Shown here: in pieces, positions 159 through 62,772 of the stretch
Layout: the number at the start of each line of letters is the position of its first letter
Position numbering within the stretch: position 1 is the first letter of the stretch
From: Gemmatimonadota bacterium
GTDB lineage: Bacteria; Gemmatimonadota; Gemmatimonadetes; Gemmatimonadales; GWC2-71-9
DNA: 64,000 bases
Assembly (NCBI GenBank): GCA_003222055.1
Contig: QHUT01000054.1
Location: forward strand, 15,022 to 79,021
Reading direction: 5' to 3'
Made by a program: the position numbers and the translations under genes
Notes under the pieces: model-generated
What the model was told of the DNA's origin: nothing
What the model saw: only the letters and a program-made list of their open reading frames with translations
Databases searched by the model: none

Positions 159-1657
159 CGAGCGGTTGCCTTCCGATCGATTGCGGATTGTGGATTGCGG
201 ATTGCGGATTGAGCCCCAGGGTTCGGCGCTCGCCCCATCCGCAATCCACTCCATTCCCGACACGCGTGCACCGGAACCACCTTCCCCGGGTTCACCCGCT
301 CCTCCGGGTCCCACACGTGGCGCACCGCGCGCATGGCGGCGAGCGAATCGCCGTCGAACAGGAGCGGCATGTAGCGGAGCTTGTCGAGCCCGATGCCGTG
401 CTCTCCCGTGATGGTCCCGCCGGCGGCGATGCACGTGGCCATGATTTCCGCGCTGGCCGCTTCCACCCGCTCGCGCAGGCCCGGCGTGCGGCCGTCGAAC
501 GAAATGTTGGGGTGCAGGTTGCCGTCGCCCGCGTGGAACACATTGCTGACCGTGAGCCCGTACTCGGCGGCGATCCGGGCGATCGTTTCCAGCACGTCGG
601 GGAGCGTGGAGCGGGGAACGACGGCGTCCTGGACCACCAGGTCGCGCGACAGCCGGCCCATGGCGCCGAAGGCTTTCTTGCGGCCGAGCCACAGCTTCTC
701 GCGCTGTTGCGCGTCCGCGGCCACGAGCACCGACCGCGCCCCGTGCGCGCGCAGCACGGCTTGGATCGTCTCGGCGTCCGCCGCGACCGCCGCCTCGTGC
801 GCGCCGTCGAGCTCGGCGAGCAGCACCGCCGCGGCATCGCGCGGGTAACCGGCCGCGTACACCGAGTCCTCCACTGCCTGGATGCACGACTGATCCATCA
901 TCTCGAGCGCGGCGGGCACGATCCCGCTGGCGATCACGGCGGACACGGCCTCACCGGCGGTACGCAATGAGGTGAAGTCGGCGAGCAAGGTGCGAACCGC
1001 CCGCGCGACGGGCAACAGCCGCACGGTGATGCGCGTCGCCACGCCGAAGTTGCCCTCCGAGCCGACGAACAGGCCGACCAGGTCGGGGCCCCACGGCTCG
1101 CCGCCGGGGCTGCCCAGCTCTACGACGCGTCCGTCCGCCAGCGCCACTTCCAGCGCGAGCACATGTGTCGCCGTCACCCCGTACTTGAGGCAGTGCGGGC
1201 CGCCCGCGTTTTCGGCCACGTTGCCGCCGATCGTACACGCGGTCTGACTCGAGGGATCGGGCGTATACTGCAGTCCGTGCGGTGCGGCGGCGACGGAGAG
1301 ACGGACGTTGACGACGCCGGGCTCGACCACGGCCAGCCTGTTGCGGGCGTCGATCTTGAGGATGCGGTTCAGCCGGGTCAGCACGATCAGCACCGCGTCG
1401 CCGTCGGCCAGCGCGCCCCCCGAGAGGCCGGTGCCCGCGCCACGTGGCACGAACGGCATGCCGAGCGCGCCGAGCAGCCGCACGACCGCGATCACCTCGT
1501 CCCGACTCCCCGGGAGCACGACCACGCCGGGCACGCGCCGGTGCGTGGGCAGCCCGTCCTTCGCGTACGTCACGCGCTCCGGCAGCGCCGTCCGCACGTG
1601 GCGCGGTCCGACGATCTCGGCGAGGGTGTCGACTAACGGCGCGAGGTCCCGTGCCAT
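155..1657 (-). CDS. glcD: FAD-linked oxidase, glycolate oxidase subunit GlcD / D-lactate dehydrogenase family
   Basis: Track ORF 155..1753. The likely start is ATG 1657 (MARDLAPLVDTLAEIVGPRHV). Motifs include VVLPGSRDEVIAVVRL, PRGAGTGLSGGA and C-terminal NPGKVVPVHACREWSG, which aligns with the E. coli GlcD tail. The last ~27 codons are encoded by repeat element A1. Confidence 0.85.
   Translation of the reverse strand: MARDLAPLVDTLAEIVGPRHVRTALPERVTYAKDGLPTHRRVPGVVVLPGSRDEVIAVVRLLGALGMPFVPRGAGTGLSGGALADGDAVLIVLTRLNRILKIDARNRLAVVEPGVVNVRLSVAAAPHGLQYTPDPSSQTACTIGGNVAENAGGPHCLKYGVTATHVLALEVALADGRVVELGSPGGEPWGPDLVGLFVGSEGNFGVATRITVRLLPVARAVRTLLADFTSLRTAGEAVSAVIASGIVPAALEMMDQSCIQAVEDSVYAAGYPRDAAAVLLAELDGAHEAAVAADAETIQAVLRAHGARSVLVAADAQQREKLWLGRKKAFGAMGRLSRDLVVQDAVVPRSTLPDVLETIARIAAEYGLTVSNVFHAGDGNLHPNISFDGRTPGLRERVEAASAEIMATCIAAGGTITGEHGIGLDKLRYMPLLFDGDSLAAMRAVRHVWDPEERVNPGKVVPVHACREWSGLRMGRAPNPGAQSAIRNPQSAIDRKATAR
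179..249. repeat. Heptamer-array palindromic element, family A (GCGGATT/AATCCGC), copy A1, one arm degenerate
   Basis: GATTGCGGATTGTGGATTGCGGATTGCGGATTG at 179..211, with partner CATCCGCAATCCAC at 236..249. It is translated as the GlcD-like C-terminus. Confidence 0.9.
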
Positions 1658-1674
1658 GGGTAAATAGTATACCG

Positions 1675-1790
1675 GCAGACGCCCAGACGCCGAGACGCCC
1701 AGCGGTGCGTAGCAGAGAGGGGCCAGGAATCCGTCTTCCTGGCCCCTTATCACGACATCCCGCTAGGCGTCTGAGCGTCTCGGCGTCTGC
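1675..1790. repeat. Composite palindrome: 30-nt arms of NNGCGTCT/AGACGCNN octamers around an inner 11-bp hairpin
   Basis: GCAGACGCCCAGACGCCGAGACGCCCAGCG (1675..1704) against CGCTAGGCGTCTGAGCGTCTCGGCGTCTGC (1761..1790), 26 of 30 complementary. The inner hairpin is GGGGCCAGGAA-TCCGTC-TTCCTGGCCCC at 1719..1746. Confidence 0.9.
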
Positions 1791-2962: not shown

Positions 2963-4066
2963 CTACCGCCCTGCCAGCACCTCGCGCACCACCCGCTCCG
3001 GTGCGGTCATCGTCCAGCTGCTGCCGTCGGCGTGCATGCGCCCCACCGCCTCCGGTAGCGCGAACCGCACCGTTCCGGCGCGTGCCTTCTTGTCGAGCTG
3101 CATCGTGGCGAGCAGGGCGTCCGCGGGCGCGCTCTTGGGGAGCTCGACCGGGAGACCGTAGCGCTCCAGCAGCTTGCGAATCCGATCGGCGGTTCCCGCT
3201 GCGGCGATCCCGAGCACCTCGGCGAGCCGCGCTTCGTACGCCATGCCGATCGCCACGGCCGCTCCGTGCAGCACGGCGAACTTGACGGTAGCCTCGACCG
3301 CGTGCGCCACGGTGTGACCGAAGTTGAGGATGGCGCGACGACCGGTCTCACGCTCGTCCGCGGCGACCACGCCCGCCTTGATTTCCACGGAGCGCCGCAC
3401 CAGCTGCTCGAGGGCGTCGGGTTGCCCGGTCGTCACGGCGTCGTGCTCGCGCTCCAGGAATGCGAAGTAGTCGGCGTCGGCGATCGCGGCGTGCTTGACC
3501 GCTTCGGCGACCCCCGCGGCGAGCTGCGGCGCCGGCAGGGTGCCGAGCAGGCCCAGGTCGGCCAGGACGAGCCGGGGTTGGTGAAAGGCACCCAGCAGGT
3601 TCTTGCCGGCGGGGACGTCGACACCCGTCTTGCCGCCGATCGACGAGTCGATCATCGCGAGCAGCGTCGTCGGTACCTGCACGTAGGGAACGCCCCGCAG
3701 GTAGGTGGCCGCGACGAACCCCGCCACGTCGCCCACGACGCCGCCGCCCAGCGCGATGACCCCGCAGTCGCGACCGAACTGACGCTGGAGCAGCCGATCC
3801 GAGAGGGACGCCCACGTTTCCCGCGTCTTGTTCGCTTCCCCTGCGGGAAACTCGAACAACTCCGCGTGCAACGTGGCGTCGTGGCATCGTGCCACGAGCT
3901 TCTTGCCGTACAGCGTCGCGACGTGCGAGTCGGTGATCACGGCGTAGCGGGCCGCGGGGCACGGGGCGTTCACCAAGGCGGGCAGATCCGCCAGCAGGCC
4001 GCGGCCGATCAGGATGTCGTACGAGGTGTTGCGCGGCTCTGCGATCGCGACGCGGATCGTCACCAC
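2963..4066 (-). CDS. aroB: 3-dehydroquinate synthase
   Basis: Contains GGGVVGDVAGFVAATYLRGVPYVQVPTTLLAMIDSSIGGKTGVD. The Arg-rich N-terminus of track ORF 2963..4213 overlaps the upstream gene and looks out of frame. The likely start is GTG 4066 or 4063 (GTGA overlap with the upstream stop). Confidence 0.85.
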   Translation of the reverse strand: MVTIRVAIAEPRNTSYDILIGRGLLADLPALVNAPCPAARYAVITDSHVATLYGKKLVARCHDATLHAELFEFPAGEANKTRETWASLSDRLLQRQFGRDCGVIALGGGVVGDVAGFVAATYLRGVPYVQVPTTLLAMIDSSIGGKTGVDVPAGKNLLGAFHQPRLVLADLGLLGTLPAPQLAAGVAEAVKHAAIADADYFAFLEREHDAVTTGQPDALEQLVRRSVEIKAGVVAADERETGRRAILNFGHTVAHAVEATVKFAVLHGAAVAIGMAYEARLAEVLGIAAAGTADRIRKLLERYGLPVELPKSAPADALLATMQLDKKARAGTVRFALPEAVGRMHADGSSWTMTAPERVVREVLAGR

Positions 4067-4660: not shown

Positions 4661-5683
4661 ATGCAGGACGTCAAAGATATCACGATAATCGGCGCCGGCC
4701 CGACGGGGTTGTTCGGCGCGTTTTACGCCGGCATGCGCGGGGCATCCTGCCGCCTCATCGACAACCTCGACCAGGTGGGCGGGCAGCTCACCGCGCTCTA
4801 TCCCGAGAAATACATCTTCGACGTGGCCGGCTTCCCGAAGGTCCTCGCCAAAGACCTCGTGAAGGGCATGGCCGAGCAGGCGCTGCAGTTCAAGCAGCCG
4901 GTCCATCTCGGCGAGAACGTGATGGGCCTGAAGCGCGACTCAGAGAACGGGAAGCCGGCCTTCACGGTGGTGACGGAGAAGGACGAGTACCCGTCGCGCA
5001 CGGTGCTGATCGCGGGGGGGATCGGCGCGTTCACCCCCCGCAAGCTGCCGCTCAAGGACGTGGACCGCTGGTACGGGAAAGGGCTGCACGATCGCGTCCT
5101 GGATCCGAAGGTGTTCAGCGGCAAGCGCGTCCTGCTGGTCGGGGGCGGTGATTCGGCGTTCGACTGGGCCGTGAACCTCCAGGGGATCGCGCGGTCCATC
5201 GTGATGATCCACCGCCGCGACGGCTTCCGCGCGCACGCCGCGACGGTACGTCAGGTGCAGGAGCTGTGCGCGGCGGGCAAAATGGAGCTCCGTACGTTCT
5301 GGGAGCTGAAGATGATCCACGGCGAGGACGTGATCGATGCCGTGACCATCTATAACAGCAAGACCAAGGTCGAGGAACGCCTGGCGGTCGACAGCGTGAT
5401 TCCGCAACTCGGCTTCATCTCCTCACTCGGCGCCATCGCGCAGTGGGGGCTCGACATCGAGAAGGGCGAGATCAAGGTCTCGCAGACCATGGCGACCAAC
5501 CTGCCGGGTGTGTTCGCGGCCGGGGACATCACCACCTATCCGGGCAAGCTCAAGCTGATTGCGACCGGCGCCGCCGAGGCGGCGATCGCCGTCAACCACG
5601 CGGTGCACTTCATCAATCCCGCGGTGAAGGTCGAGCCGGGGCACTCCTCGAACATGGCGCTGTTTGGGCAGACGGAAGACTGA
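4661..5683 (+). CDS. Ferredoxin-NADP+ reductase, thioredoxin-reductase-like type (YumC family)
   Basis: ITIIGAGPTGLFGAFYAGMRG...GGQLTALYPEKYIFDVAGFP and a second dinucleotide fold, VGGGDSAFDWA. Confidence 0.85.
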   Translation: MQDVKDITIIGAGPTGLFGAFYAGMRGASCRLIDNLDQVGGQLTALYPEKYIFDVAGFPKVLAKDLVKGMAEQALQFKQPVHLGENVMGLKRDSENGKPAFTVVTEKDEYPSRTVLIAGGIGAFTPRKLPLKDVDRWYGKGLHDRVLDPKVFSGKRVLLVGGGDSAFDWAVNLQGIARSIVMIHRRDGFRAHAATVRQVQELCAAGKMELRTFWELKMIHGEDVIDAVTIYNSKTKVEERLAVDSVIPQLGFISSLGAIAQWGLDIEKGEIKVSQTMATNLPGVFAAGDITTYPGKLKLIATGAAEAAIAVNHAVHFINPAVKVEPGHSSNMALFGQTED

Positions 5684-5721
5684 CGGTAGTGGCATGGTCC
5701 TCTACCGTCTTCTACCGCCCT
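5671..5721. terminator. Hairpin between convergent stops, arms made of two ~10-nt direct repeats (GACGGWAG / CTACCGYC)
   Basis: GACGGTAG (5682..5689) pairs with CTACCGTC (5702..5709). The outer units GACGGAAG (5671..5678) and CTACCGCC (5712..5719) pair 6 of 8. It sits exactly between the FNR TGA and the dacB TAG. There is no U-tract. Confidence 0.4.
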
Positions 5722-7235
5722 ATCTGTACCACCACCGAGTCAATCTGGTTGAGCATCTGCTGATACGGCACCGCGTGCCCGTTCGCCTGGACGCTGAACG
5801 TGACGGTCCGGCCGTTGGGCTGCTCGATGTAGCCCGACAGGCTGTTGACGCGGTCGATGCTGCCGGTCTTGGCGATCACGCGGCCTTCCAGGGGCGTGCC
5901 GACGAAGCGCTTGAGGAGCGAGCCCGGTTGTCCCGCGTGCGGCAGCGCGGCGACGAACGCCGCTCCCTTGGGATGGCGATGCATGTAGGCGAGGAGCTGC
6001 GCGAACGCGTGCGGGGTGACCAGGTTGCCGGCCGCCAGCCCCGACCCGTCCTCCAGTGCGAACGCGGTCGAGTCGATCTTCACCGAATCGATCAGGAAAC
6101 GGCGCTCCACGTCGAGCCCCGCCGCCCAGCTGCCCTCTCCCTTGATTTCGCGACCCAGCACCTTGAGCAGCATCTCCGCGAACCAGTTCTGGCTGGTGTT
6201 GAGGATCGGGAAGAGGACGTCGGGCAGCGGTCGCCCGCGGTATTCGACGAGCGGGGAGCCGCAGCAGCGGGCGGCCCGATAGGCGAGTGAATCCGTGGTG
6301 CTGATCGCGCCGCCCGCCACCGCGACGCCCTTGCGCCCGAGCGACGTCGCCAGGGCCCGCGCGGCGTAGAGATTCGGGTCCGGGACCGCGACGCTCTCCA
6401 CCCCGGGCTTCCTGCCGAGCGCGACCGTTCCCTCGGCCCGGATGCCCCACCCCCCGCCGCTGCGGAAGAAGTTGTCTCCGATGGTCGACGTCGAGTCCGC
6501 GGCTACGGTGCGGGCGCGGTTTTCGAACGTGATGAGCCCCAGGTCGGGCGACCAGGTGATCACGGGGGGCGCGTCCACGCCCGGCCCGGGCGCGATGTGG
6601 AAGTCCACGCTGTTGTCGTGGAACCCGAGGCCGGACACCGGCGCCGCGTACCACCACGTCAGGTCCCACGCATTCCAGCTGTAGTGAATCAGGGTCGGCT
6701 CGAAATACGATCCGTCGCCCACCAGTTTCCCCGTGATGCGCCGGATGCCGCGGCCGCGCACGGAGTCGGCGATGGCGTCGACGGCGGTGAACGCCGAATC
6801 ACACGCCCCGGGCGCGAGCGTGTCGACGGAGAAGCACCGCTCGGACCAGGTGGGATCGCCCCGCCCGTAGAAGATCAGGTCACCGTACAGCACGCCGCTG
6901 TCCACCCGCCCGTTCACGTACAGGCTGGTGGTCACGCGGTAATCCACCGGCAGCAGCACCGCCGCGGCCGCGGTGACCACGAGCTTCGTGTTGCTCGCCG
7001 GCACGGAGAAGTGATCGGCGTTGCGTCGATACAGGACGCGGCCGCGATCGTCGACGACGTAGAGCCCCCACGTGGCGCGGTCGAACGGCGGGGCGTCGAT
7101 CAGCTGCGCCAGCCGGTGCTCCAGAGAGCCGCGCAACGCCGCGGTGCGCGGTCGCGCGGCGGAGGGAGGCGCGGGGGACGACTGCGCCGCCAGGCCCGAG
7201 CTAATCGTAAGCGATGCGAGGATCAGCTTTCGCAT
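5712..7235 (-). CDS. dacB: D-alanyl-D-alanine carboxypeptidase/endopeptidase, PBP4 (peptidase S13)
   Basis: Signal peptide MRKLILASLTISSGLAAQ. SxxK motif in PASNTKLV. KTG motif in IAKTGSIDRVNSLSGY. Confidence 0.85.
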   Translation of the reverse strand: MRKLILASLTISSGLAAQSSPAPPSAARPRTAALRGSLEHRLAQLIDAPPFDRATWGLYVVDDRGRVLYRRNADHFSVPASNTKLVVTAAAAVLLPVDYRVTTSLYVNGRVDSGVLYGDLIFYGRGDPTWSERCFSVDTLAPGACDSAFTAVDAIADSVRGRGIRRITGKLVGDGSYFEPTLIHYSWNAWDLTWWYAAPVSGLGFHDNSVDFHIAPGPGVDAPPVITWSPDLGLITFENRARTVAADSTSTIGDNFFRSGGGWGIRAEGTVALGRKPGVESVAVPDPNLYAARALATSLGRKGVAVAGGAISTTDSLAYRAARCCGSPLVEYRGRPLPDVLFPILNTSQNWFAEMLLKVLGREIKGEGSWAAGLDVERRFLIDSVKIDSTAFALEDGSGLAAGNLVTPHAFAQLLAYMHRHPKGAAFVAALPHAGQPGSLLKRFVGTPLEGRVIAKTGSIDRVNSLSGYIEQPNGRTVTFSVQANGHAVPYQQMLNQIDSVVVQIGR

Positions 7236-30040: not shown

Positions 30041-30810
30041 CACGGGCTCCGGGCCACGACGACGTCCACCACGGTGCCGGGGGCGGCCAGCGTACCCGCC
30101 GCCGGCCGCTGCGCGATCACGGTGCCCGGCGTCGCTTCGCCCGAGCGGCGCCGCGTCACGGTACCCAGCGCGAGCCCCTCCTGCTCCAGACGGGTGCGAG
30201 CATCCGCCTGCGACAGGCCGAGCAGGCCCGGCACCGCGATGGTCGGGGCGCCCCGGCTCACCACCACCGTCACCGGCGCCCCCGGGGCCAGGAGCGTCGT
30301 GGCGGCCGGCCGGGTGAGCATCGTCACGCCGGGGGCCGCCGCGGCCTGCACCGACTCCACCTGCGCCACGGTGAGCCCGGCCGCGACGATCAGCTGCTGC
30401 GCCAGCGGTCCATCCAGGCCGGCCACGTGCGGTACCGGAATCTTGGGGGGACCGTCGCTCGACACCAGGGTCACCCGCAGCCCCGCCGGCGCGCTCACGC
30501 CGGCAGGCGGGTCCTGCCAAATGATGCTGCCCTGTGGGGCGCTGGGGTGCGACTCTGAGCCGCCGTCCTGCACCTGCAGCCCCGCCTTGCGGAGCGCGGC
30601 CGAGGCCTCCTGCAGCGACAGACCCAGCACGCGTGGTACGACATCGTGTCCGTGCAGGATGGGGGCGGGAAAGAGAACGAGGTACGCCGTCAGATACCCT
30701 ATCACGATGGCTCCGACGAGGGCGAGTCCCCAACGTCGCGCCCCGGACAGGTCGCCGAAGGCGGGCAGCTTCCATTCCTGCAGCGGCGGGACGTGACGGC
30801 GGAGCTGCAT
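30040..30810 (-). CDS. Membrane-anchored PASTA-domain protein (three PASTA-like repeats, no kinase or PBP domain)
   Basis: One TM segment (WGLALVGAIVIGYLTAYLVLF), then three repeats ~65-70 aa long of the type VPxVxGLsxxxAxxxLxxaGL...V. Confidence 0.7.
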   Translation of the reverse strand: MQLRRHVPPLQEWKLPAFGDLSGARRWGLALVGAIVIGYLTAYLVLFPAPILHGHDVVPRVLGLSLQEASAALRKAGLQVQDGGSESHPSAPQGSIIWQDPPAGVSAPAGLRVTLVSSDGPPKIPVPHVAGLDGPLAQQLIVAAGLTVAQVESVQAAAAPGVTMLTRPAATTLLAPGAPVTVVVSRGAPTIAVPGLLGLSQADARTRLEQEGLALGTVTRRRSGEATPGTVIAQRPAAGTLAAPGTVVDVVVARSP

Positions 30811-32060
30811 CAGCGCGTCCGCGCGAAGCGCGCCGCGTATGCACCGTCGATTCCGTCGCGCTGTGGCAGGGACTGCAGGTCGCCGTCCGGAGTGAGCAGG
30901 GCAGCCGGCACCGCGGCCGGCACGGGCGCGCGCCCGAACTCAGGGTGGCAGGCGAGGAACTCGGTCACGATGTCGTCGTTCTCCTCCGGCTCGAGCGAGC
31001 AGGTACTGTAGACGAGCAGTCCTCCCGCACCGACGAGCGTTGCGGCGGCCGCGAGCAGCGCCCGCTGCCGCCGGGCGGCGTGTACGATCGTGCGCGGCGT
31101 GATCCGCCAGCGGGCGTCCGGATGCCGGGCCATGGTGCCGGTAGCGGAGCACGGGGCGTCCACCAACACGGCGGATGCGGTTCCCGGCGCGAGCGGTGCC
31201 GACAGAAGATCGGCGACCGTCACCCGGATCGCCACTCCCGCCCGTCGCGTCGTCTCGGCCAGCCGGCGCATGCGCTCCGGCCGGGCGTCCCCCGCCACGA
31301 CTCGAGCGCCGCCCCGCTCCAGCATCACGGCCTTGCCGCCCGGCGCGGCACAGGCGTCGTACACGAGCGCTCCCGGGGGGATCGCGGCGTAGCGGCAGAC
31401 GAGGGCGTGGGCGGGGTCCTGGACGATAAAGCCGCCTTCCGAATACCCCGGCAACTGCACGGGAAACGGGAAACGGGAAACGTGGTCGAGGCGTGACACC
31501 CGCAGGCCGGCTCCATGGGGCGCTTCTTCTACACCAAACCCGACCTTCCGGAGCTCGAGCGCGAGCACATCGGCGGACCAACGGGCAGGCTGAAGCGTGA
31601 GATTCGGCTTCGTGTCATTCCAGGCGACCAGCCGGGTTGTGTCGGTCGCCCCAAAGAGGCGCCGCCAGCGCTCGACGAGCCACGACGGGTGCGTGTTCTC
31701 GCCCGTTTCCCGTTTCCGGTTTCCCGTTTCCCGAGCGAGCCTTCGCAGCGCCTGGTTCACATACCTCGCTGCCGCGTCGCCCGCCGCTTCCCGCGCCAGC
31801 TCCACGCTGGTGGCGACCGCCGCGTAGGCCGGCACGCGGGCCAATGCGGCCAGCTGGTAGGCGCCAAGACGGAGGACATCGTGCAGGCGCGGGTCGGCGT
31901 GGCGCAGCCGCAGCCGGCGGTCGAGATCCGCTCGCCCCCGCAGCACGCCGGCGGCGAGCTCATAGGCGAGCCGGCGGTCCCGCCCGGCGAGCGTGGGAAG
32001 CACCCGGTCCCGCGCCGCCTGGAACGTGCCGCCGGAGCGCACCGCCTGGAGGATGTGCAA
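30810..32060 (-). CDS. rsmB: 16S rRNA (cytosine967-C5)-methyltransferase
   Basis: HPSWLVERW, FIVQDPAHALV, DACAAPGGK, DAPCSATGT and YSTCSLEPEEN. It contains two in-frame heptamer arrays (see repeats). Confidence 0.9.
   Translation of the reverse strand: MHILQAVRSGGTFQAARDRVLPTLAGRDRRLAYELAAGVLRGRADLDRRLRLRHADPRLHDVLRLGAYQLAALARVPAYAAVATSVELAREAAGDAAARYVNQALRRLARETGNRKRETGENTHPSWLVERWRRLFGATDTTRLVAWNDTKPNLTLQPARWSADVLALELRKVGFGVEEAPHGAGLRVSRLDHVSRFPFPVQLPGYSEGGFIVQDPAHALVCRYAAIPPGALVYDACAAPGGKAVMLERGGARVVAGDARPERMRRLAETTRRAGVAIRVTVADLLSAPLAPGTASAVLVDAPCSATGTMARHPDARWRITPRTIVHAARRQRALLAAAATLVGAGGLLVYSTCSLEPEENDDIVTEFLACHPEFGRAPVPAAVPAALLTPDGDLQSLPQRDGIDGAYAARFARTR
31459..31482. repeat. (GGGAAAC)x3 heptamer array inside rsmB
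   Basis: ACGGGAAACGGGAAACGGGAAACG. It is translated on the minus strand as SRFPFP. Confidence 0.9.
31702..31733. repeat. (CCCGTTT)x4 heptamer array inside rsmB, inverted partner of 31459..31482
   Basis: CCCGTTTCCCGTTTCCGGTTTCCCGTTTCCCG. It is translated on the minus strand as RETGNRKRETG. Confidence 0.9.
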
Positions 32061-36734: not shown

Positions 36735-36812
36735 ATTGCGGATTGCGGATTTCGGATTGCGGATTCGAAAGTCGGGCGTCCAATCCGCAATCCACAATCC
36801 GCAATCCGCAAT
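36735..36812. repeat. Heptamer-array palindromic element, family A, copy A2
   Basis: Left arm ATTGCGGATTGCGGATTTCGGATTGCGGATT (36735..36765). Loop CGAAAGTCGGGCGTCC. Right arm AATCCGCAATCCACAATCCGCAATCCGCAAT (36782..36812). 29 of 31 positions are complementary. It fills the queA-tgt gap. Confidence 0.95.
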
Positions 36813-37864
36813 CAGAGTACCGCCATTGCATCCCCATACGAGTAAAACCGGTATCCCTCCCTTACCGCTTCCCCGTACGCCCGCATGACGTTGTCATAGC
36901 CCCCGAACGCGCACACCAACATTAGCAGGGTCGAGCGCGGCAGGTGGAAGTTCGTGAGCAGCCGGTCGACCGCGCGGAACGAGTACGGGGGGTGAATGAA
37001 GAGCCGGGTCTCGCCGGCGCCCGGAGCGATGCGGCCGCGCTCGCCGGCAAGCGTTTCGAGCGTGCGCACGACCGTGGTCCCGACCGCCCAGACGCGACCT
37101 CCCGCTTCCCGTCGCTCGTTGATGATCCCGGCCGCGCTGTCGCTCACCCGGTACGGCTCGTCGTGCATCGCATGGCGCGCGAGGTCGTCGGTCTCGACCG
37201 GCTTGAAGGTGCCGGGGCCGACGTGCAGGTCCACTTCCGCGAGCGCCACGCCCTTGTCGCGCAGCCGGTCCAACAGGTCGCGCGTGAAATGCAATCCGGC
37301 CGTGGGAGCGGCGACGCTGCCGTCGTGTGCCGCGTACACCGTCTGGTAGCGCTCGCGATCCTCGGGGCGCGGCGCGCGGCGGATGTAGGGCGGCAGTGGC
37401 ACCTCGCCGTACTTGGCGAGCGTGGCCGGGGCGTCGAGCGCGCCGACGAACCGCACCCGGCGGAGGCCGCCTCCCAACGCCTCGACGATCTCCGCGGTGC
37501 TGTCGGGGCCGAACGTCACGCGGCGTCCCGACTTGAGCTTGCCTCCGGGATGCCCCATGGCGAGCCAGGTCCCATCGGGTAGCTCCCGGACGAGCAAGAG
37601 TTCGGCCTTGCCGCCGGACCCGCCCATCCCGCTTCCCGCAAGCCGCATCCCGTGCAGTCTCGCCGGAATCACGCGTGACACGTTGACGACGAGCACGTCC
37701 TCCGGCGCCACCAGATCGACGACGTCGACGAACCGCCCGTGGCGGATCGCCCCGCTGGCGCGATCGAGCACCAGGAGGCGACTCCCGCCCCGATCGGGGA
37801 GCGGGTCTTGGGCGATCTGCTCGGCTGGCAGACTGTAGTCGAAGTCTGAAGTTCGGTAGAGCAC
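36812..37864 (-). CDS. queA: S-adenosylmethionine:tRNA ribosyltransferase-isomerase
   Basis: The start GTG 37864 gives (M)LYRTSDFDYSLPAEQIAQDPL, which aligns with E. coli MRVTDFSFELPESLIAHYP. Also TRVIPARL-like VSRVIPARL, AAPTAGLHFT and FRFYSYGDAM. The track ORF N-terminus runs through repeat A3. Confidence 0.92.
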   Translation of the reverse strand: MLYRTSDFDYSLPAEQIAQDPLPDRGGSRLLVLDRASGAIRHGRFVDVVDLVAPEDVLVVNVSRVIPARLHGMRLAGSGMGGSGGKAELLLVRELPDGTWLAMGHPGGKLKSGRRVTFGPDSTAEIVEALGGGLRRVRFVGALDAPATLAKYGEVPLPPYIRRAPRPEDRERYQTVYAAHDGSVAAPTAGLHFTRDLLDRLRDKGVALAEVDLHVGPGTFKPVETDDLARHAMHDEPYRVSDSAAGIINERREAGGRVWAVGTTVVRTLETLAGERGRIAPGAGETRLFIHPPYSFRAVDRLLTNFHLPRSTLLMLVCAFGGYDNVMRAYGEAVREGYRFYSYGDAMAVL

Positions 37865-37870
37865 GCCGAG

Positions 37871-37952
37871 AATTGCGGATGGCGGATTTCGGATTGCGGA
37901 TTCGAAGGTCGTGGGTCCAATCCGCAATCCGCACTCCACAATCCGCAATCCG
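37871..37952. repeat. Heptamer-array palindromic element, family A, copy A3
   Basis: AATTGCGGATGGCGGATTTCGGATTGCGGATT, loop CGAAGGTCGTGGGTCC, then AATCCGCAATCCGCACTCCACAATCCGCAATCCG. It fills the ruvB-queA gap. Confidence 0.95.
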
Positions 37953-55228: not shown

Positions 55229-56068
55229 GTGATCCCCAGCCCCGCGCTACTCATGTACCACCGCGTCGTGCGCAGTCGTTGGACTCTGACCGGTCTCGCC
55301 GTCGTCGTCGCACTCGCGCTCGCTGCGCTGGCGGCGCCGCTCATCGCGCCGGGCGATCCCTATCACGGACACCTCGCCGCCGCGTTGCAGGCGCCGTCGC
55401 GCGCCTTCCCGCTCGGCACCGACGCGCAGGGACGCGACGTCCTGAGCCGGCTGCTGTTCGGCGCCCGGTTGTCGCTCGCCGTCGGGCTCGCGAGCCAGGT
55501 GATCGCCCTCGCGGTCGGGCTCACGCTGGGTCTGGCGGCGGGCTTCTACGGGCGCTCCGTGGACGCGGTGGTGATGCGCGCCGCCGATGTGACCCTCGCC
55601 TTCCCGTCCCTCCTCCTGCTCATCGCCGTCGCCGCCGCCGTGAAGCCCACGCTGCCGGTCGTGTGCGTGGTGATCGGCATCGTGGGCTGGGCGGGCATGG
55701 CCCGCCTGGTGCGCGCCCAGGTCCTCGTGGTGCGTCGTCTCGACTACGTCCACGCGGCGCGCGCGTTCGGCGCCTCCGACGCACGCCTCGCCGCGCGCCA
55801 CGTGCTCCCCAACGTGCTGGGCCCGGTGATCGTCGCCGCCACCCTCGGTGTCGGTGGTGCGATCATGGCCGAAGCCGCGCTCTCGTTCGTGGGGCTGGGC
55901 GCGCCACCGCCCACGCCCTCGTGGGGCGCGATGGTGGCCGAGGGCCGCGACCTGCTGCGGGTGGCGCCGTGGGTGTCGCTCTTTCCCGGGCTCGCGATCG
56001 GCCTGACTGTGCTAGCCGTCAATCTCATCGGCGACGGCTTACGTGACGCCCTGGATGTGCGGGCATGA
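55229..56068 (+). CDS. ABC peptide/nickel transporter permease (DppC/OppC-like)
   Basis: LAAPLIAPGDPY...GTDAQGRDVLSRLLFGARLSL...YVHAARAFGAS. Confidence 0.85.
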   Translation: MIPSPALLMYHRVVRSRWTLTGLAVVVALALAALAAPLIAPGDPYHGHLAAALQAPSRAFPLGTDAQGRDVLSRLLFGARLSLAVGLASQVIALAVGLTLGLAAGFYGRSVDAVVMRAADVTLAFPSLLLLIAVAAAVKPTLPVVCVVIGIVGWAGMARLVRAQVLVVRRLDYVHAARAFGASDARLAARHVLPNVLGPVIVAATLGVGGAIMAEAALSFVGLGAPPPTPSWGAMVAEGRDLLRVAPWVSLFPGLAIGLTVLAVNLIGDGLRDALDVRA

Positions 56069-57252: not shown

Positions 57253-57259
57253 AGCGTTA

Positions 57260-57330
57260 CACGACGCCACGACGCCACGACGCCACGTTGCGAGAGCCTC
57301 TTTCGTGGAACGTGGCGTCCTGCCGTCATG
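57260..57330. repeat. Octamer-array palindromic element, family B, copy B2 (between convergent genes)
   Basis: (CACGACGC)x3 + CACGTT at 57260..57289, with partner AACGTGGCGTCCTGCCGTCATG at 57309..57330 (19 of 22 complementary). The loop starts GCGAG and ends TCGTGG, like B1. Confidence 0.9.
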
Positions 57331-59315: not shown

Positions 59316-61475
59316 ATGGCGTCCATCCCTGCACCCGTCACTCTGCCCGGACCGCTCTCCTGGTGGCACAATCCGAAGACGCGTCGCCGCGTGATCGCGG
59401 CCGCGGTGCTCGCCGCCGCCTACGGCGTGGGATTGACGTATGGCGCGTGGACCCGCGTGTGCGCCGGGGAGCACTGCCCCAGCATCTCGCGGCTGGTGGC
59501 AAATCCCAACCATCAGGTGCAGACCTCCAAGGTGTACGCCGCCGACGGACGCTTGATCAGCGAGCTCGGTGCCGAGCGGCGCACGGTGCTGCCGCTCAGC
59601 GCCATTCCCGTGTCGGTGCGCCAGGCGTTCATCGCCACCGAAGACAAGCGCTTCTACGAGCATCACGGGATCGACTTCTTACGCATCCTCGGCGCTATCA
59701 AAGCCAACGTGTTTTCGCTCGGGTTCGCGCAGGGCTTCTCGACCATCACGATGCAGCTGGCCCGCAACATCTTTCCCGACGACATCAGCCGCGAGAAGAC
59801 GCTCACGCGCAAGCTCAAGGAAGCCCGCGTCGCCGTGGAGATCGAGCGCAACTTCGTCAAGGACACGATCCTGCAGCTCTACCTGAACCAGATCAACCTG
59901 GGGGCTGGGGCGCACGGGGTGGAGGCCGCGGCGCTGATCTACTTCGGCAAGTCGGCGCGCCAGCTCAATGTCGCGGAGGCCGCGATGCTGGCCGCGCTTC
60001 CCAAGCTGCCCGCGTTCTACAATCCGCGCACCCACCCCGACCGCGCCGTCCGCCGTCGCAACGTCGTGCTGGGTCTCATGCGCGACCAGGGTTTCCTCAC
60101 GCCGGAGGAGTGCGAGCTGTGGCGCTCCTACCCCCTCGTGCTCACCGGGAACCGCACCAACTACGGCGACGTGGCGCCGTATTTCGTCGAATGGCTGCGC
60201 GTGCAGATGGACGCGAAGTTCGGGCGCGATCTGTACGAGGGTGGCCTGCGCATCTACACCACGCTCGATCTCGACATGCAGGAGGCGGCGGAACGCGCCC
60301 TGCAGTCCCAGCTCGACGCCATCGAAGCCGGCGTGTACTCGAATGGCAAGTTCCCCGGGCGCATCACCTACCGTGAATACCTCGAGTCGTCCAAGGCGTC
60401 CGGGCAGGACCACGGAGACTACACGCCCTACCTCCAGGGCGCGCTCGTATCGCTCGAGGCGAACACCGGCTACATCCGCGCCATGATCGGGGGCCGCGAC
60501 TTCGACGACTCGAAGTACAACCGCGCCACCCAGGCGGTCCGCCAGCCGGGCTCCACGTTCAAGCCGTTCGTCTATTCCGCGGCCGTCCGGGCCGGCCACC
60601 CCGTGACCGAGATGCTCGACGACTCGCCGCTCAACCCGCCGGTGATCCAGCTCGACTCCACGCTGTGGCAGCCGAAGGACGACGACGACACGACGCTGGG
60701 GATGATCCCGATGCGCGAGGCCCTCTATCTCTCGCGCAACCTCGCGACGATCAAGCTCGGCCAGACGCTGGGCGAGCAGACGGTCATCGGCGAAGCCCGC
60801 AACTACGGCATCACCACGCCGCTCCCCGCATATCCGTCCATCTTCATCGGGGCGAAGGGAGTCAAGCCCTACGAGATCATCGGCGCCTACACCGCGTTCG
60901 CCACGCTCGGCACGCGCGCCGAGCCCGTGGGCATCCTGCGCGTCGAAGACCGTCAGGGGAACATCCTGTGGCAGCCCGCCGTGCGCCGCGAGACCGTGAT
61001 GGACTCCTCGCACGCCTGGCTCATGGTCGACATGATGAAAGACGTGATCCGCCGCGGCACCGCGTTCACGGCCGTGTGGAAAGCCGGCTTCACCCTGCCG
61101 GCGGCCGGCAAGACCGGCACGACCGACGACTACACCGACGCCTGGTTCATCGGGTACACGCCCGAGCTCGTGACCGGGATCTGGGTCGGCTACGACATCC
61201 AGCAGCGGATCCTCGAGCACAACGCGGGCGGCGGCCGCATCGTCGCCCCCGCCTGGACCGCGTTCATGCGCGACGTGTACGACCGCCGGCCGGCGCCCCC
61301 GGACTGGGTACGCCCCGACTCGCTCGTGACGCGCGAGGTCGATTGGTCGAACGGCTATCTCGCCACGGCGTTCTGCCCGCAGGAAGTGCGGCACTGGGAC
61401 TGGTTCTATCCCGGCACTGAGCCGTCGCAGGCCTGCCCAGTACACCCGCCGTTCGGCACGGGGATCTCGCCGTGA
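59316..61475 (+). CDS. Penicillin-binding protein 1A (bifunctional glycosyltransferase/transpeptidase)
   Basis: GT51 motifs FIATEDKRFYEHHGID, GFSTITMQLARN and RKLKEARVA. Transpeptidase motifs QPGSTFKPFVY (SxxK) and KTGTTDD. The start is ATG 59316. Confidence 0.9.
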   Translation: MASIPAPVTLPGPLSWWHNPKTRRRVIAAAVLAAAYGVGLTYGAWTRVCAGEHCPSISRLVANPNHQVQTSKVYAADGRLISELGAERRTVLPLSAIPVSVRQAFIATEDKRFYEHHGIDFLRILGAIKANVFSLGFAQGFSTITMQLARNIFPDDISREKTLTRKLKEARVAVEIERNFVKDTILQLYLNQINLGAGAHGVEAAALIYFGKSARQLNVAEAAMLAALPKLPAFYNPRTHPDRAVRRRNVVLGLMRDQGFLTPEECELWRSYPLVLTGNRTNYGDVAPYFVEWLRVQMDAKFGRDLYEGGLRIYTTLDLDMQEAAERALQSQLDAIEAGVYSNGKFPGRITYREYLESSKASGQDHGDYTPYLQGALVSLEANTGYIRAMIGGRDFDDSKYNRATQAVRQPGSTFKPFVYSAAVRAGHPVTEMLDDSPLNPPVIQLDSTLWQPKDDDDTTLGMIPMREALYLSRNLATIKLGQTLGEQTVIGEARNYGITTPLPAYPSIFIGAKGVKPYEIIGAYTAFATLGTRAEPVGILRVEDRQGNILWQPAVRRETVMDSSHAWLMVDMMKDVIRRGTAFTAVWKAGFTLPAAGKTGTTDDYTDAWFIGYTPELVTGIWVGYDIQQRILEHNAGGGRIVAPAWTAFMRDVYDRRPAPPDWVRPDSLVTREVDWSNGYLATAFCPQEVRHWDWFYPGTEPSQACPVHPPFGTGISP

Positions 61476-61477
61476 GA

Positions 61478-61564
61478 GAGGGGCTAGGGGTCGGGGGCTA
61501 GGGGCTGGGGACTGCGCTGCCATCCCGAATCCCTGACCCCTGACCCCTGATCCCTGACCCCTGA
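61478..61564. repeat. G-tract / C-tract heptamer palindrome (GGGGCTA-type arm against CCCTGAC-type arm)
   Basis: GGGGCTAGGGGTCGGGGGCTAGGGGCTGGGG at 61480..61510 and CCCTGACCCCTGACCCCTGATCCCTGACCCCTGA at 61531..61564. The right arm ends at the ATG of the amidohydrolase gene. Confidence 0.9.
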
Positions 61565-62772
61565 TGTTGCGCATCCGCGCAGGGTCCGTGCACCCCGTCA
61601 CGGCGCCGCCCATCACGGACGGCGCCGTTCTCGTTGCGGACGATGGCCGGATCGCGGCGGTCGCGGCGCATGCGCAATTGCCCGACCCTCCAGGATCCCG
61701 CCGGGTCGAGTTTCCCGACGCCGTCCTCGTCCCGGGCCTCGTCAACACGCACACCCACCTCGAGCTCACCCATCTCGCCGGTCGCAATCCGGAGCGCGAG
61801 TTCTCCCGCTGGATCCGCACCATCCGGGCGCTGAAGGACGCGACCACGCCCGAAGAGTTCGATCACTCGGCCGAGCAGGGCGTGCGGGACTGCTGGACGG
61901 CGGGCGTCACCTGCGTCGCGGACACGGGAAGTACCGGAGCGCCCCTCAGGGCGCTCGCCCGCCTCGGCGCGCGCGGGATCTATTATCAGGAGGTATTCGG
62001 CCCCGATCCGGCGGACCGGGCGGTGAGCCTGGCCGACCTGCAGGCCGCCGTGGTCCGGCTCGGTCCCGTCGCCTCCGCCCGCGCACGGCTCGGCGTGTCG
62101 CCGCACGCGCCGTACACCGTGAGCGAGCCGCTCTATCGCGCGGTCGCCGATTTTGCACGGCGCGAAACGCTCCCCGTCGCGATGCACCTGGCCGAGTCGC
62201 GCGATGAGACGGCGCTGGTACGCGACGGGGCGGGCTCGTTCGCCCAGGCGCTGCGCGCGCGCGGTATCCCCGTGCAAGCGCACCACTGCTCGCCGGTGCA
62301 GTATCTCCTGCAACTTGGCGTCTTAGAACATGCAACGGGGTGGCTCTTCATCCACTGCGTTCAAGTGGACGCACGGGACATCGCGATTCTGCGGGACTCG
62401 GGTGGGGCGGTGGCCGCCTGCCCCCGTTCCAACCGCGCCCACGGGCACGGCACGGCGCCCCTGGCTGCATTCCGGGCCGCCGGCATCCCGGTCGGGCTCG
62501 GCACCGACTCGGTGGTCAGCGCGGGCGATGTCAACCTGTGGGCCGAGGCGGCGGCCGCCGGACTGCACGGGGAGGACGCGATCCGCATGCTCACGATCGA
62601 GGGAGCGCGGGCGCTCGGGCTCGACGGCGAGATCGGCTCGCTCGAGGTCGGGAAGCAGGCCGACCTCGCGGTTTTTCCCTCTGCCGCCCTCGCCCGCCCT
62701 TTGCCGCCATCTGCCGCCCTTCTCACCCTCGTCGCCGGACGGGTCGTTCGCGGCTACATTCCCGCCCCATGA
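61564..62772 (+). CDS. Amidohydrolase-family protein (chlorohydrolase/deaminase-like)
   Basis: VLVPGLVNTHTHLELT (HxH metal site), MHLAES and GLGTDS. The C-terminal part contains tandem decamers. Confidence 0.8.
   Translation: MLRIRAGSVHPVTAPPITDGAVLVADDGRIAAVAAHAQLPDPPGSRRVEFPDAVLVPGLVNTHTHLELTHLAGRNPEREFSRWIRTIRALKDATTPEEFDHSAEQGVRDCWTAGVTCVADTGSTGAPLRALARLGARGIYYQEVFGPDPADRAVSLADLQAAVVRLGPVASARARLGVSPHAPYTVSEPLYRAVADFARRETLPVAMHLAESRDETALVRDGAGSFAQALRARGIPVQAHHCSPVQYLLQLGVLEHATGWLFIHCVQVDARDIAILRDSGGAVAACPRSNRAHGHGTAPLAAFRAAGIPVGLGTDSVVSAGDVNLWAEAAAAGLHGEDAIRMLTIEGARALGLDGEIGSLEVGKQADLAVFPSAALARPLPPSAALLTLVAGRVVRGYIPAP
62671..62730 (+). repeat. Tandem decamers (CTGCCGCCCT-like, about 5-6 units) in the 3' part of the amidohydrolase CDS
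   Basis: GTTTTTCCCT CTGCCGCCCT CGCCCGCCCT TTGCCGCCAT CTGCCGCCCT TCTCACCCTC, read in register from 62671. No inverted partner was seen. Confidence 0.75.

Follow-up and report, generated by a model that had tools for sequence, protein, structure and literature searches.

What do a run of G-rich repeats and a facing run of C-rich repeats do when together they fill the whole space between one gene's stop codon and the next gene's start codon? The question is raised by an 88-nt spacer in a 64,000-nt stretch of Gemmatimonadota contig QHUT01000054.1 (the window, from whose first letter all positions are counted), where the gene of a class A penicillin-binding protein (PBP1A) is followed by that of an amidohydrolase. 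An earlier note, made from the letters alone, described a G-quadruplex (G4) motif on each strand of this spacer, considered the RNA able to form either a hairpin or a quadruplex, and held that translation of the amidohydrolase would depend on the structure. Here, we show that the element belongs to a genome-wide class of 7- to 8-nt repeat hairpins at operon stop-to-start junctions, whose G-rich members match the heptamers of Xanthomonas and Nostoc. Comparison of orthologues further indicates that it is restricted to a single subclade of soil Gemmatimonadales, where it entered a once tight junction, and that it is dispensable. With moderate confidence, we favor the reading that a tandem-heptamer hairpin entered a coupled operon junction and acts there as an intercistronic RNA hairpin that keeps downstream translation coupled, modulating expression while being dispensable, its G4 capacity being incidental and its function one that we infer from geometry. 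The parts of the locus are the following.

59316..61475, plus strand: PBP1A gene, the upstream cistron (Pfam Transgly and Transpeptidase).
61473..61475, plus strand: TGA stop codon of PBP1A, with the first paired base of the hairpin 3 nt further downstream.
61479..61511, plus strand: G-arm, forming the 5' side of the hairpin and matching a canonical four-layer G4 pattern (Tandem Repeats Finder, inverted-repeat search, G4 statistics).
61512..61523, plus strand: apical loop region CTGCGCTGCCAT, short and G+C-rich (minimum free energy [MFE] and centroid structures).
61524..61563, plus strand: C-arm, forming the 3' side of the hairpin and, on the minus strand, a G3-type G4 motif (Tandem Repeats Finder, inverted-repeat search, folds).
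61564..62772, plus strand: amidohydrolase gene, the downstream cistron (Pfam Amidohydro_1 and Amidohydro_3, orthologue N-termini, gene tables).

The spacer consists of GAGA followed by the element. Beginning 4 nt past the PBP1A stop on the coding strand, the G-arm holds about 4.6 tandem heptamers (AGGGGCT, AGGGGTC, GGGGGCT, AGGGGCT, GGGGACT), which read as GGGG (61480-83), CTA, GGGG (61487-90), TC, GGGGG (61493-97), CTA, GGGG (61501-04), CT, and GGGG (61507-10). This confirms the five runs of at least four G, with gaps of 2 to 3 nt, first described at 61480-61510. The C-arm is composed of CCCGAAT and about 4.9 heptamers of the CCCTGAC type, with runs at 61524-26 (CCC), 61531-33 (CCC), 61537-40 (CCCC), 61544-47 (CCCC), 61552-54 (CCC), and 61558-61 (CCCC), separated in order by GAAT, TGA, TGA, TGAT, and TGA. 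The five TGA-spaced C-runs of the earlier description are there, but two of them have only three C, one spacer is TGAT, and a sixth run, CCC, precedes them at 61524-26. In Tandem Repeats Finder, each arm is detected as an array of period 7, the G-arm with 4.6 and the C-arm with 4.9 copies. As had been proposed, the arms are partly complementary and can pair (73 to 79%; inverted repeat I1 of the inverted-repeat search has 33-nt arms at 73%). The C-arm exceeds the G-arm by one unit, and two stem registers are possible, ending at 61555 or 61562 (MFE versus centroid structure).

The true start of the amidohydrolase is the ATG at 61564-66, at which the N-termini of orthologues align and directly 5' of which lies the C-arm; the element thus fills the spacer and adjoins the ATG. 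No GGAG-type Shine-Dalgarno (SD) sequence occurs 5' of this ATG, again in agreement with the first description. No open reading frame (ORF) bridges the stop to the start, stop codons being present inside the arms in all three spacer frames. The probable start of PBP1A is ATG 59316, judged from the 719- to 724-aa gene calls of relatives and a conserved upstream ACTAGGTTGTA, and the longest ORF runs from 59178. The amidohydrolase carries the label MTA/SAH-deaminase-like in some sources, and its 3' end is overlapped by argR in relatives.

We observe the same layout elsewhere in the window, which according to Tandem Repeats Finder holds five inverted pairs of 7- to 8-nt arrays with differing unit sequences. 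Of the five, four run from a stop to a start between co-directional genes, and none of the downstream starts is preceded by an SD. The siblings of the focal element, together with the one pair that lies inside a gene, are as follows.

37872..37952, minus strand: GGATTGC/GCAATCC heptamer hairpin filling the ruvB-queA spacer (fold, -51.6 kcal/mol, z = -6.8; orthologues).
36735..36814, minus strand: GGATTGC/GCAATCC heptamer hairpin filling the queA-tgt spacer (fold, -54.1 kcal/mol, z = -8.3; orthologues).
1676..1789, minus strand: 8-mer arrays, CAGACGCC x3 and GGCGTCTG x3, forming an outer stem round an inner 12-bp G+C-rich hairpin (fold, -95.7 kcal/mol, z = -9.7).
179..249, minus strand: partial GGATTGC-family copy whose second arm is short, lying within the 3'-terminal part of a glcD-like ORF.
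31459-31482 and 31702-31733, within the minus-strand ORF 30810..32060: ACGGGAA x3.4 and CCCGTTT x4.6, 220 nt apart (Tandem Repeats Finder).

The sibling hairpins are single long folds of -52 to -96 kcal/mol (z = -6.8 to -9.7). At the ruvB-queA junction, the element is separated by 3 nt from the TAA (37957-55) and by 6 nt from the queA GTG at 37864, and at the queA-tgt junction the array opens within the queA stop itself (TGAttgcgg), with 7 nt from the end of the element to the tgt GTG. The 8-mer element at 1676-1789 begins 2 nt past a TAG (1794-92) and ends 18 nt short of the ATG at 1657 of a glcD-like gene. Tandem Repeats Finder gives the units of both queA-flanking arrays as ATTGCGG/CAATCCG and those of the 8-mer pair as CAGACGCC/GCGTCTGA. 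The spacer-filling, start-abutting geometry is a recurrent pattern in this genome. The GGATTGC and CAGACGCC units cannot form G4, and most spacer-filling examples in the window are G4-incapable; since siblings of the same layout lack this ability, G4 formation is not a shared property of the class.

The glcD-like ORF reads through the element at 179-249 to a TGA that overlaps the ATG of the next gene (ATGA, 155-158), and the element may have lengthened the C-terminus of the glcD-like protein by about 35 residues. The arrays at 31459 and 31702 sit in the coding sequence of an rsmB/sun-like rRNA methyltransferase and encode the linkers 'SRFPFPVQ' and 'ETGNRKRETGE'.

The history of the focal junction can be read from relatives, which were gathered by protein search and contig look-ups and graded by amidohydrolase identity to the window. 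The closest genomes are metagenome-assembled genomes of soil Gemmatimonadales, and PBP1A-amidohydrolase synteny is kept across the order. The spacers of these relatives are listed below.

L081-83, 100% amidohydrolase identity: spacer identical, 88 nt.
L085-87, 92%: spacer of 82 nt, with the C-arm one heptamer shorter.
L088-90, 89%: spacer of 7 nt, 'cgcgcgc'.
L091-93, 89%: spacer of 76 nt.
L150, 89%: spacer of 73 nt.
L094-95, 88%: spacer of 78 nt.
L096-97, 85%: spacer of 71 nt.
L001, 78%: spacer of 91 nt.
L002, 76%: spacer of 45 nt, unrelated.

Spacers that bear the element span 71 to 91 nt, and those of outgroups measure 2 to 20 nt and have no SD (e.g., 'ccc TGA cc GTG' and 'ccc TAG cg ATG'). 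In a neighbor-joining tree of the amidohydrolase, L088 is nested within the element-bearing clade and L002 is sister to L001; the simplest history would be one gain and at least two losses. The ancestral 2- to 20-nt junction was presumably translationally coupled. That the element adjoins both codons reflects its insertion into a junction only a few nucleotides long, and not precise positioning. We observe no strain-level polymorphism in repeat number, the spacers being identical in four contigs, from four samples, that encode an identical amidohydrolase; the element is not hypervariable at the strain level.

Scored as GGAG, GAGG, or AGGA at -18 to -7, an SD is present in only about 3 to 5 of the 14 to 19 genes called in close relatives, one example being 'caggagacacc GTG' at the 3-keto-disaccharide hydrolase gene. 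The absence of an SD is thus the norm in these genomes and older than the element, with SD-less coupling as the presumed ancestral state. The dependence of translation start on the structure, which the earlier note had drawn from the missing SD, therefore does not follow: with relatives mostly SD-less and element-free orthologues SD-less as well, the missing SD says little about such dependence, and the complete loss of the element in a nested lineage means that it is not an indispensable regulator. In addition, a consensus scan returned no terminator-like site at 61000-62000, and no promoter was predicted. The stem is followed by ATGTTGCGC, without the T-tract of an intrinsic (Rho-independent) terminator; a window-wide scan for hairpins with a T-run at gene ends found none and is hence non-discriminating. 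As the spacer is too short to hold a promoter and matches neither a promoter nor a terminator consensus, PBP1A and the amidohydrolase are most likely co-transcribed. Rfam 15, run over the whole window at gathering thresholds, gave no matches.

Across the eight distinct variants of the element, layout persists and units turn over. The G-array begins at or inside the stop codon in all eight (TAGGGACT... in L094-97 and L150), and the C-array ends 1 to 2 nt 5' of the ATG in seven, the exception being L001. All eight have 4 to 5 units per arm and fold into hairpins of -48 to -68 kcal/mol (z = -3.1 to -8.1), and at least four G-runs are kept in both arms of all eight orthologues. The units themselves are lineage specific, with GGGGCTA, GGGACTC, and GGGGTTC in one arm and CCCTGAC, CCCCGAG, and CCCGAGT in the other. 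The spacers of the window and L085 differ by an indel of one 7-nt unit. Between L085 and L086, 0 of 281 amidohydrolase four-fold sites differ, and the element differs by a T/C exchange between adjacent units, from which it follows that unit-level conversion or slippage outpaces point substitution. It is thus shown in part that the arrays change by gain, loss, and conversion of whole units while the arms stay roughly complementary. As a separate matter, the TGA codons of the C-arm in three frames and the UGAUG stop/start overlap were considered as a designed restart signal and rejected, orthologues with CCCCGAG units being without them.

The queA junctions display the same persistence and turnover. 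A heptamer hairpin occupies both queA-flanking spacers in all six lineages sampled (79 to 100% QueA identity), and the other ruvCAB-queA-tgt-yajC-def-fmt junctions overlap or span 1 to 2 nt. The window, L221, and L222 have the unit GGATTGC, and L218, L219, and L220 have GGAACGC, in each case at both junctions and in all four arms. Gene conversion between the two elements, which are 1.1 kb apart, can explain this concerted switch; a trans-acting reader is possible. Heptamer arrays are also seen within queA itself in relatives (L220, 4206-4230; L221, 1481-1510). Some public gene calls (P0122-P0124) add 25 N-terminal residues to QueA by reading through the upstream heptamer hairpin, and heptamer elements thus cause start-codon misannotation.

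How such arrays arise is seen at the convergent aminotransferase/ydjM junction. The window carries (CACGACGC) x3.5 at 57253-57325, L090 carries the same unit x2.5, and L088 carries (CGTTACA) x6.9 with an inverted (CGTGCAA) x3.3 at 2245-2328; L088 and L090 encode an identical amidohydrolase protein, and their arrays at this junction differ. All three start from a common seed, 'agcgttacacg', which is direct evidence for local tandem duplication in place and not for a ready-made mobile insertion. At the same junction, L095 has a 15-mer x5 that includes the stop codon (5647-5769). More broadly, the 561 kb of Gemmatimonadota loci surveyed contain G-rich 7- to 8-mer arrays with a variety of units, at a density of about 20 per Mb. 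A metagenome pattern scan, which took in eukaryotic telomere-like contigs and is used qualitatively only, indicates that heptamer arrays are widespread in high-GC contigs among the matches listed, where about 12 of 52 high-GC arrays have an inverted partner.

Does the element work as a quadruplex or as a hairpin? By the canonical definition (at least four tracts of at least three G, loops of 1 to 7 nt), a G4 motif lies on the plus strand at 61480-61504, extending to 61510, with tracts of at least four G and loops of 2 to 3 nt, and another on the minus strand at 61537-61561 with tracts of at least three G. The G-arm is the sole motif on either strand of the window with four tracts of at least four G and loops of at most 3 nt, where first-order Markov simulations lead one to expect 0.005 per window. 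G4Hunter, the score suggested in the earlier note, gives 2.60 for the G-arm, which is the window maximum, and -2.16 for the C-arm; each strand does carry a genuine G4 motif. The spacer RNA folds as one long hairpin (MFE, -55 to -62 kcal/mol; z = -3.6 to -3.9 versus dinucleotide shuffles). When quadruplexes are allowed in ViennaRNA, the isolated G-arm is assigned a four-layer G4 of -32.5 kcal/mol, and in the full transcript, sense or antisense, the MFE stays with the hairpin, at -59.8 kcal/mol. Of the proposed choice between hairpin and quadruplex, the pairing of the arms and the G4 of the isolated G-arm are thus borne out, but with both arms present the model keeps to the hairpin. A sliding 100-nt MFE along the window is uninformative, as at 70% G+C the raw MFE is low throughout (mean, -41 kcal/mol).

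A loop-shuffle test, in which the G and C runs were fixed and only the inter-run letters shuffled, shows that these letters are complementary far above the shuffle null in L094 (z = -5.1), L096 (-3.9), L150 (-3.9), and L085 (-2.3). The test is null for the window copy (z = -0.05), L091, L001, and L086. The element family is a genuine inverted repeat, but the window copy pairs through its runs only. The copy-number distribution of period-7 arrays, taken from 548 kb of Gemmatimonadota loci, is the same with or without a G/C run in the unit (medians of 3.9 copies, n = 39, and 3.6 copies, n = 47, respectively). Overall, the RNA hairpin is more likely to be the working form than the quadruplex, and the G4 capacity of the element is probably incidental, a by-product of its G-rich unit.

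On the reading that we favor, PBP1A and the amidohydrolase would be co-transcribed, and the arms would fold into an mRNA stem of about 30 bp, not a quadruplex, that starts 3 nt past the PBP1A stop and ends, in its two registers, 1 to 8 nt before the amidohydrolase ATG. Such a stem would hide from a free 30S subunit the region that it requires. A ribosome that has reached the end of PBP1A and terminates there would already have melted the foot of the stem and so exposed the neighboring ATG, and downstream translation would stay coupled despite the extra 88 nt. The long stem may also block a 3'-exonuclease or serve as a substrate of RNase III; such a barrier or cut would separate the stabilities of the two cistrons, as REP/BIME and phage T7 hairpins do. 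The intercistronic RNase III hairpins of phage T7 place a long stem exactly between cistrons, and in shunting on the cauliflower mosaic virus 35S leader an ORF ends a few nucleotides before the foot of a stem and initiation resumes just after it. Both are mechanistic analogies only.

Several points weigh against this reading. The window's present hairpin depends on G-run:C-run pairing alone, which a two-strand G4 model would also conserve. The G-arm emerges first from the polymerase, and a four-layer RNA G4 could trap it kinetically before the C-arm appears. The loss in L088-90 and the absence in L002 imply that the element is not required, which fits a neutral or selfish element equally well. 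Across lineages, element identity is only modestly above four-fold-site identity and is inflated by low complexity, and we make no claim of purifying selection on the element at the nucleotide level; template-switch correction could keep the arms complementary without selection. Finally, sense hairpins tend to be stabler than their antisense counterparts (7 of the 8 orthologues, 14 of the 19 elements), and a comparison of G.U with A.C counts gives 42 versus 34 G.U pairs. This asymmetry is weak, comes from orthologues and elements that are not independent, and is not counted here as a result; it lends only slight support to the transcript as the relevant molecule.

The alternative that survives best, and which we regard as possible though doubtful, is a neutral or selfish repeat. 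Slippage of the polymerase would expand the heptamers, hairpin-templated (quasi-palindrome) correction would copy the other arm, and the repeat would survive where it is harmless, between co-directional genes. Arrays of different units do grow in place at the same junction (aminotransferase/ydjM), units change faster than point substitution, and in-frame arrays are also found within genes (rsmB, queA, L132), in keeping with such an origin. The clean loss in L088-90 points the same way, but elsewhere the element persists across 78 to 100% amino-acid identity, and the queA-flanking elements are there in six of six lineages whose other operon junctions overlap. The decayed loop complementarity of the window copy speaks for neutrality, and an arm length steady at 4 to 5 units and a modest sense-strand stability bias speak against it. 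Long palindromes are, moreover, usually deleted by bacterial genomes. The related heptamers of Xanthomonas and Nostoc have likewise yielded no function (Rehm et al. 2015, PMC4692102).

It is in our view improbable that initiation at the amidohydrolase ATG is controlled by a quadruplex, or by switching between G4 and hairpin, whether in the mRNA or in either DNA strand. The G-arm is the window's strongest G4 motif and is predicted to form a G4 when alone (-32.5 kcal/mol), but once the C-arm is present the hairpin is ahead by about 27 kcal/mol, and a complementary C-arm, which is always present, is counterproductive for an RNA G4. The retention of at least four G-runs in both arms of 8 of 8 orthologues, and of runs in place of loop complementarity in the window copy, would suit a quadruplex; the preference for four units is, however, common to G-poor arrays, siblings of the same geometry cannot form G4, and the element is dispensable. 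RNA G4s were reportedly found by Guo and Bartel in 2016 to be depleted or unfolded in bacteria, which we count against this explanation. In its favor, similar heptamers form G4 in vitro (PMC4692102), and a G4-hairpin-duplex switch has been proposed in Escherichia coli (PMC5100583).

A noncanonical terminator or attenuator without a U-tract, which would end or dampen the PBP1A transcript, has slightly less still to recommend it. The hairpin is very stable, G+C-rich, and directly after a stop codon, similar arrays occur at a convergent gene junction, and gene ends in the window have essentially no canonical terminator made of a hairpin and a T-tract. Against this stand the missing T-tract, a spacer too short for an amidohydrolase-argR promoter, of which none is predicted, the co-transcription implied by an ancestral 2- to 20-nt junction, and the presence of the same hairpin type on both sides of queA within otherwise overlapping genes. 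Least credible of all is a mobile nonautonomous (REPIN- or MITE-like) element or a binding-site array for a genome-specific protein, with the unit set in trans: the GGATTGC family does occur at three window loci, two copies with a common loop sequence, the two elements beside queA carry, in all arms, GGATTGC in three lineages and GGAACGC in the other three, and Gemmatimonadota loci have G-rich 7- to 8-mer arrays scattered through them, about 20 per Mb, but the GGGGCTA/CCCTGAC unit has no second copy in the 64-kb window, neither target-site duplications nor terminal features are present, the arms are not palindromic REPs, no transposase was seen, although no search aimed at one was made, in-place growth from local seeds argues against transposition, and gene conversion over 1.1 kb can explain the concerted change.

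Among known systems, the closest are the G-rich heptamers described by Rehm et al. 2015 (PMC4692102), GGGAATC in Xanthomonas and GGGGA(C/T)T (STRR1) in Nostoc. Their mode is four units, and a Xanthomonas genome holds 70 to 75 convergent inverted pairs (PMC4692102). They lie mainly between aligned ORFs, no more than 50 bp after a stop on the coding strand or before a start on the noncoding strand, form K+-dependent G4 in vitro, and are mostly transcribed, and no function was found for them (PMC4692102). At the level of sequence, the element has every feature of this class, in a new phylum and with new units. Its units are 7 nt long with a tract of three to four G, and the 4.6 and 4.9 copies compare with a minimum of two and typically about four; the G-arm follows a stop on the coding strand, and the C-arm, G-rich on the noncoding strand, reaches the ATG; and the arms form a convergent pair (33 nt, 73% complementary). 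In both cases the inverted pairs, between aligned ORFs, are capable of forming a stem-loop or a G4, copy number and sequence vary at the same junction in close relatives (here, spacers of 88, 82, 76, 78, 71, 73, and 91 nt, and 7 nt in L088), and there is no tie to gene functions. Unlike the described heptamers, the element comes from Gemmatimonadota, has the units GGGGCTA, GGGGTCA, and GGGACTC, and fills, as a pair, a whole formerly coupled stop-to-start spacer. In addition, whereas Xanthomonas has about 37 per Mb of a single unit, the element's unit is found at one locus in 64 kb, with no second GGGGCTA/GGGGTCA (or CCCTGAC) array in the window. A further difference is that the same genome also has G-poor heptamer and octamer hairpins of identical layout, which suggests that G4 capacity does not define the heptamer-hairpin class.

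Other repeats are more distant. MIRUs, reportedly described by Supply and colleagues in 1997, are said to be tandem repeats inserted between the cistrons of operons, where they point in the direction of transcription and allow the genes on either side to be translationally coupled. Their units measure 46 to 101 bp and have small ORFs that overlap the flanking stop and start codons, whereas the element has 7-nt units and a hairpin; with a 7-nt unit and no bridging ORF, it is not a MIRU-type repeat. Like the element, the REP, BIME, and REPIN sequences of enterobacteria and pseudomonads are intergenic or intercistronic hairpins of about 70 to 110 nt, often just after stops and persistent in a lineage (Bertels and Rainey 2011, PMC3116915), with roles as mRNA 3'-end stabilizers and in differential expression within operons (PMC3116915). 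REPIN arms, however, are single imperfect palindromes with a conserved family sequence and a RAYT transposase, while those of the element are tandem 7-nt arrays grown in place; since its arms are tandem heptamers and not palindromes, and its unit is single-copy in the window, we reject identity with REPIN or REP on these grounds, no search aimed at RAYT having been made.

The TAACTGA repeats of Beggiatoaceae, cyanobacteria, and Bacteroidetes, with 2 to 6 copies and a proposed translational role, are similarly heptamer arrays within a few nucleotides of starts and without ribosome-binding sites (MacGregor 2015, PMC4679880). Unlike the element, they are direct only (one inverted case), A/T-rich, built from a single conserved unit, and do not form a hairpin. 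Finally, the G-quadruplex-hairpin-duplex switch motifs proposed in E. coli (Kaplan et al. 2016, PMC5100583) share its intergenic position and its hairpin or G4 capability, but have neither tandem heptamers nor the stop-to-start placement.

The double G4 is therefore a dispensable example of a class of repeats known before from Xanthomonas and Nostoc, and its value lies mainly in class-level comparison and not in the single locus. The class is here extended to Gemmatimonadota and other high-GC soil bacteria. G-rich and G-poor hairpins alike in layout, copy number, and placement within one genome call into question the published case for selection for quadruplexes as the cause of the four-unit preference. 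In addition, the graded orthologues show elements entering overlapping or few-nucleotide junctions and persisting for long while units are replaced in concert. Together, these points offer a concrete, testable system in which to ask how a stem of about 30 bp, set precisely between a stop and the next start, is tolerated, or exploited, by translational coupling and by the processing of operon mRNA.

A bolder view, which we consider unlikely, is that heptamer hairpins are not repeat debris but a maintained 'punctuation' of operons in Gemmatimonadota and perhaps in other high-GC soil bacteria. If it were true, stop-hairpin-start modules would carry terminating ribosomes past the stem to a start without an SD, in a bacterial version of shunting, or RNase III would yield separately stable cistrons. 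Genome-specific units that switch in concert at several loci would then imply a trans-acting reader or a dedicated homogenizing mechanism, and the Xanthomonas and Nostoc rule of four units for four G-tracts would reflect a preference for a stem of about 30 bp and not a quadruplex.

Related repeats were also seen beyond these junctions. The oppC-aminotransferase junction is an ATGA overlap in the window (about 56065-56068) and in L095, and in L088 (960-1056) and L096 (4424-4520) it holds a 97-nt insertion with three nested nontandem hairpins, a further instance in which structured DNA has entered a coupled junction. In L132 (WNGB01020051.1, about 7100-7215), a GGGGTCA/GGGGCCA...CCCTGAT/CCCCGAT hairpin lies apparently in frame in an Amidohydro_3-type gene, between 'AIELALQ' and 'IEHAQIIDP'. 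The Gemmatimonadales contig L062 (1099-1649) has four CTCAGCC arrays of about five copies each, one every 170 nt or so, as a higher-order repeat. L099, an unrelated contig of 60% G+C, has TGACCCC arrays (1513-1540 and 3506-3530) directly 5' of the atpA and atpG starts; the unit equals that of the window's C-arm, and the atpA array has an inverted G-arm about 110 nt upstream. Within the amidohydrolase gene itself, a 10-nt tandem repeat (CCCTCTGCCG-like, x4.4) at 62677-62720 codes for 'PSAALARPLPPSAA' and forms a G3-type G4 motif on the minus strand, and its 10-nt period is kept in all orthologues (L001, CCCTCCACCG x4), though it is not a multiple of 3.

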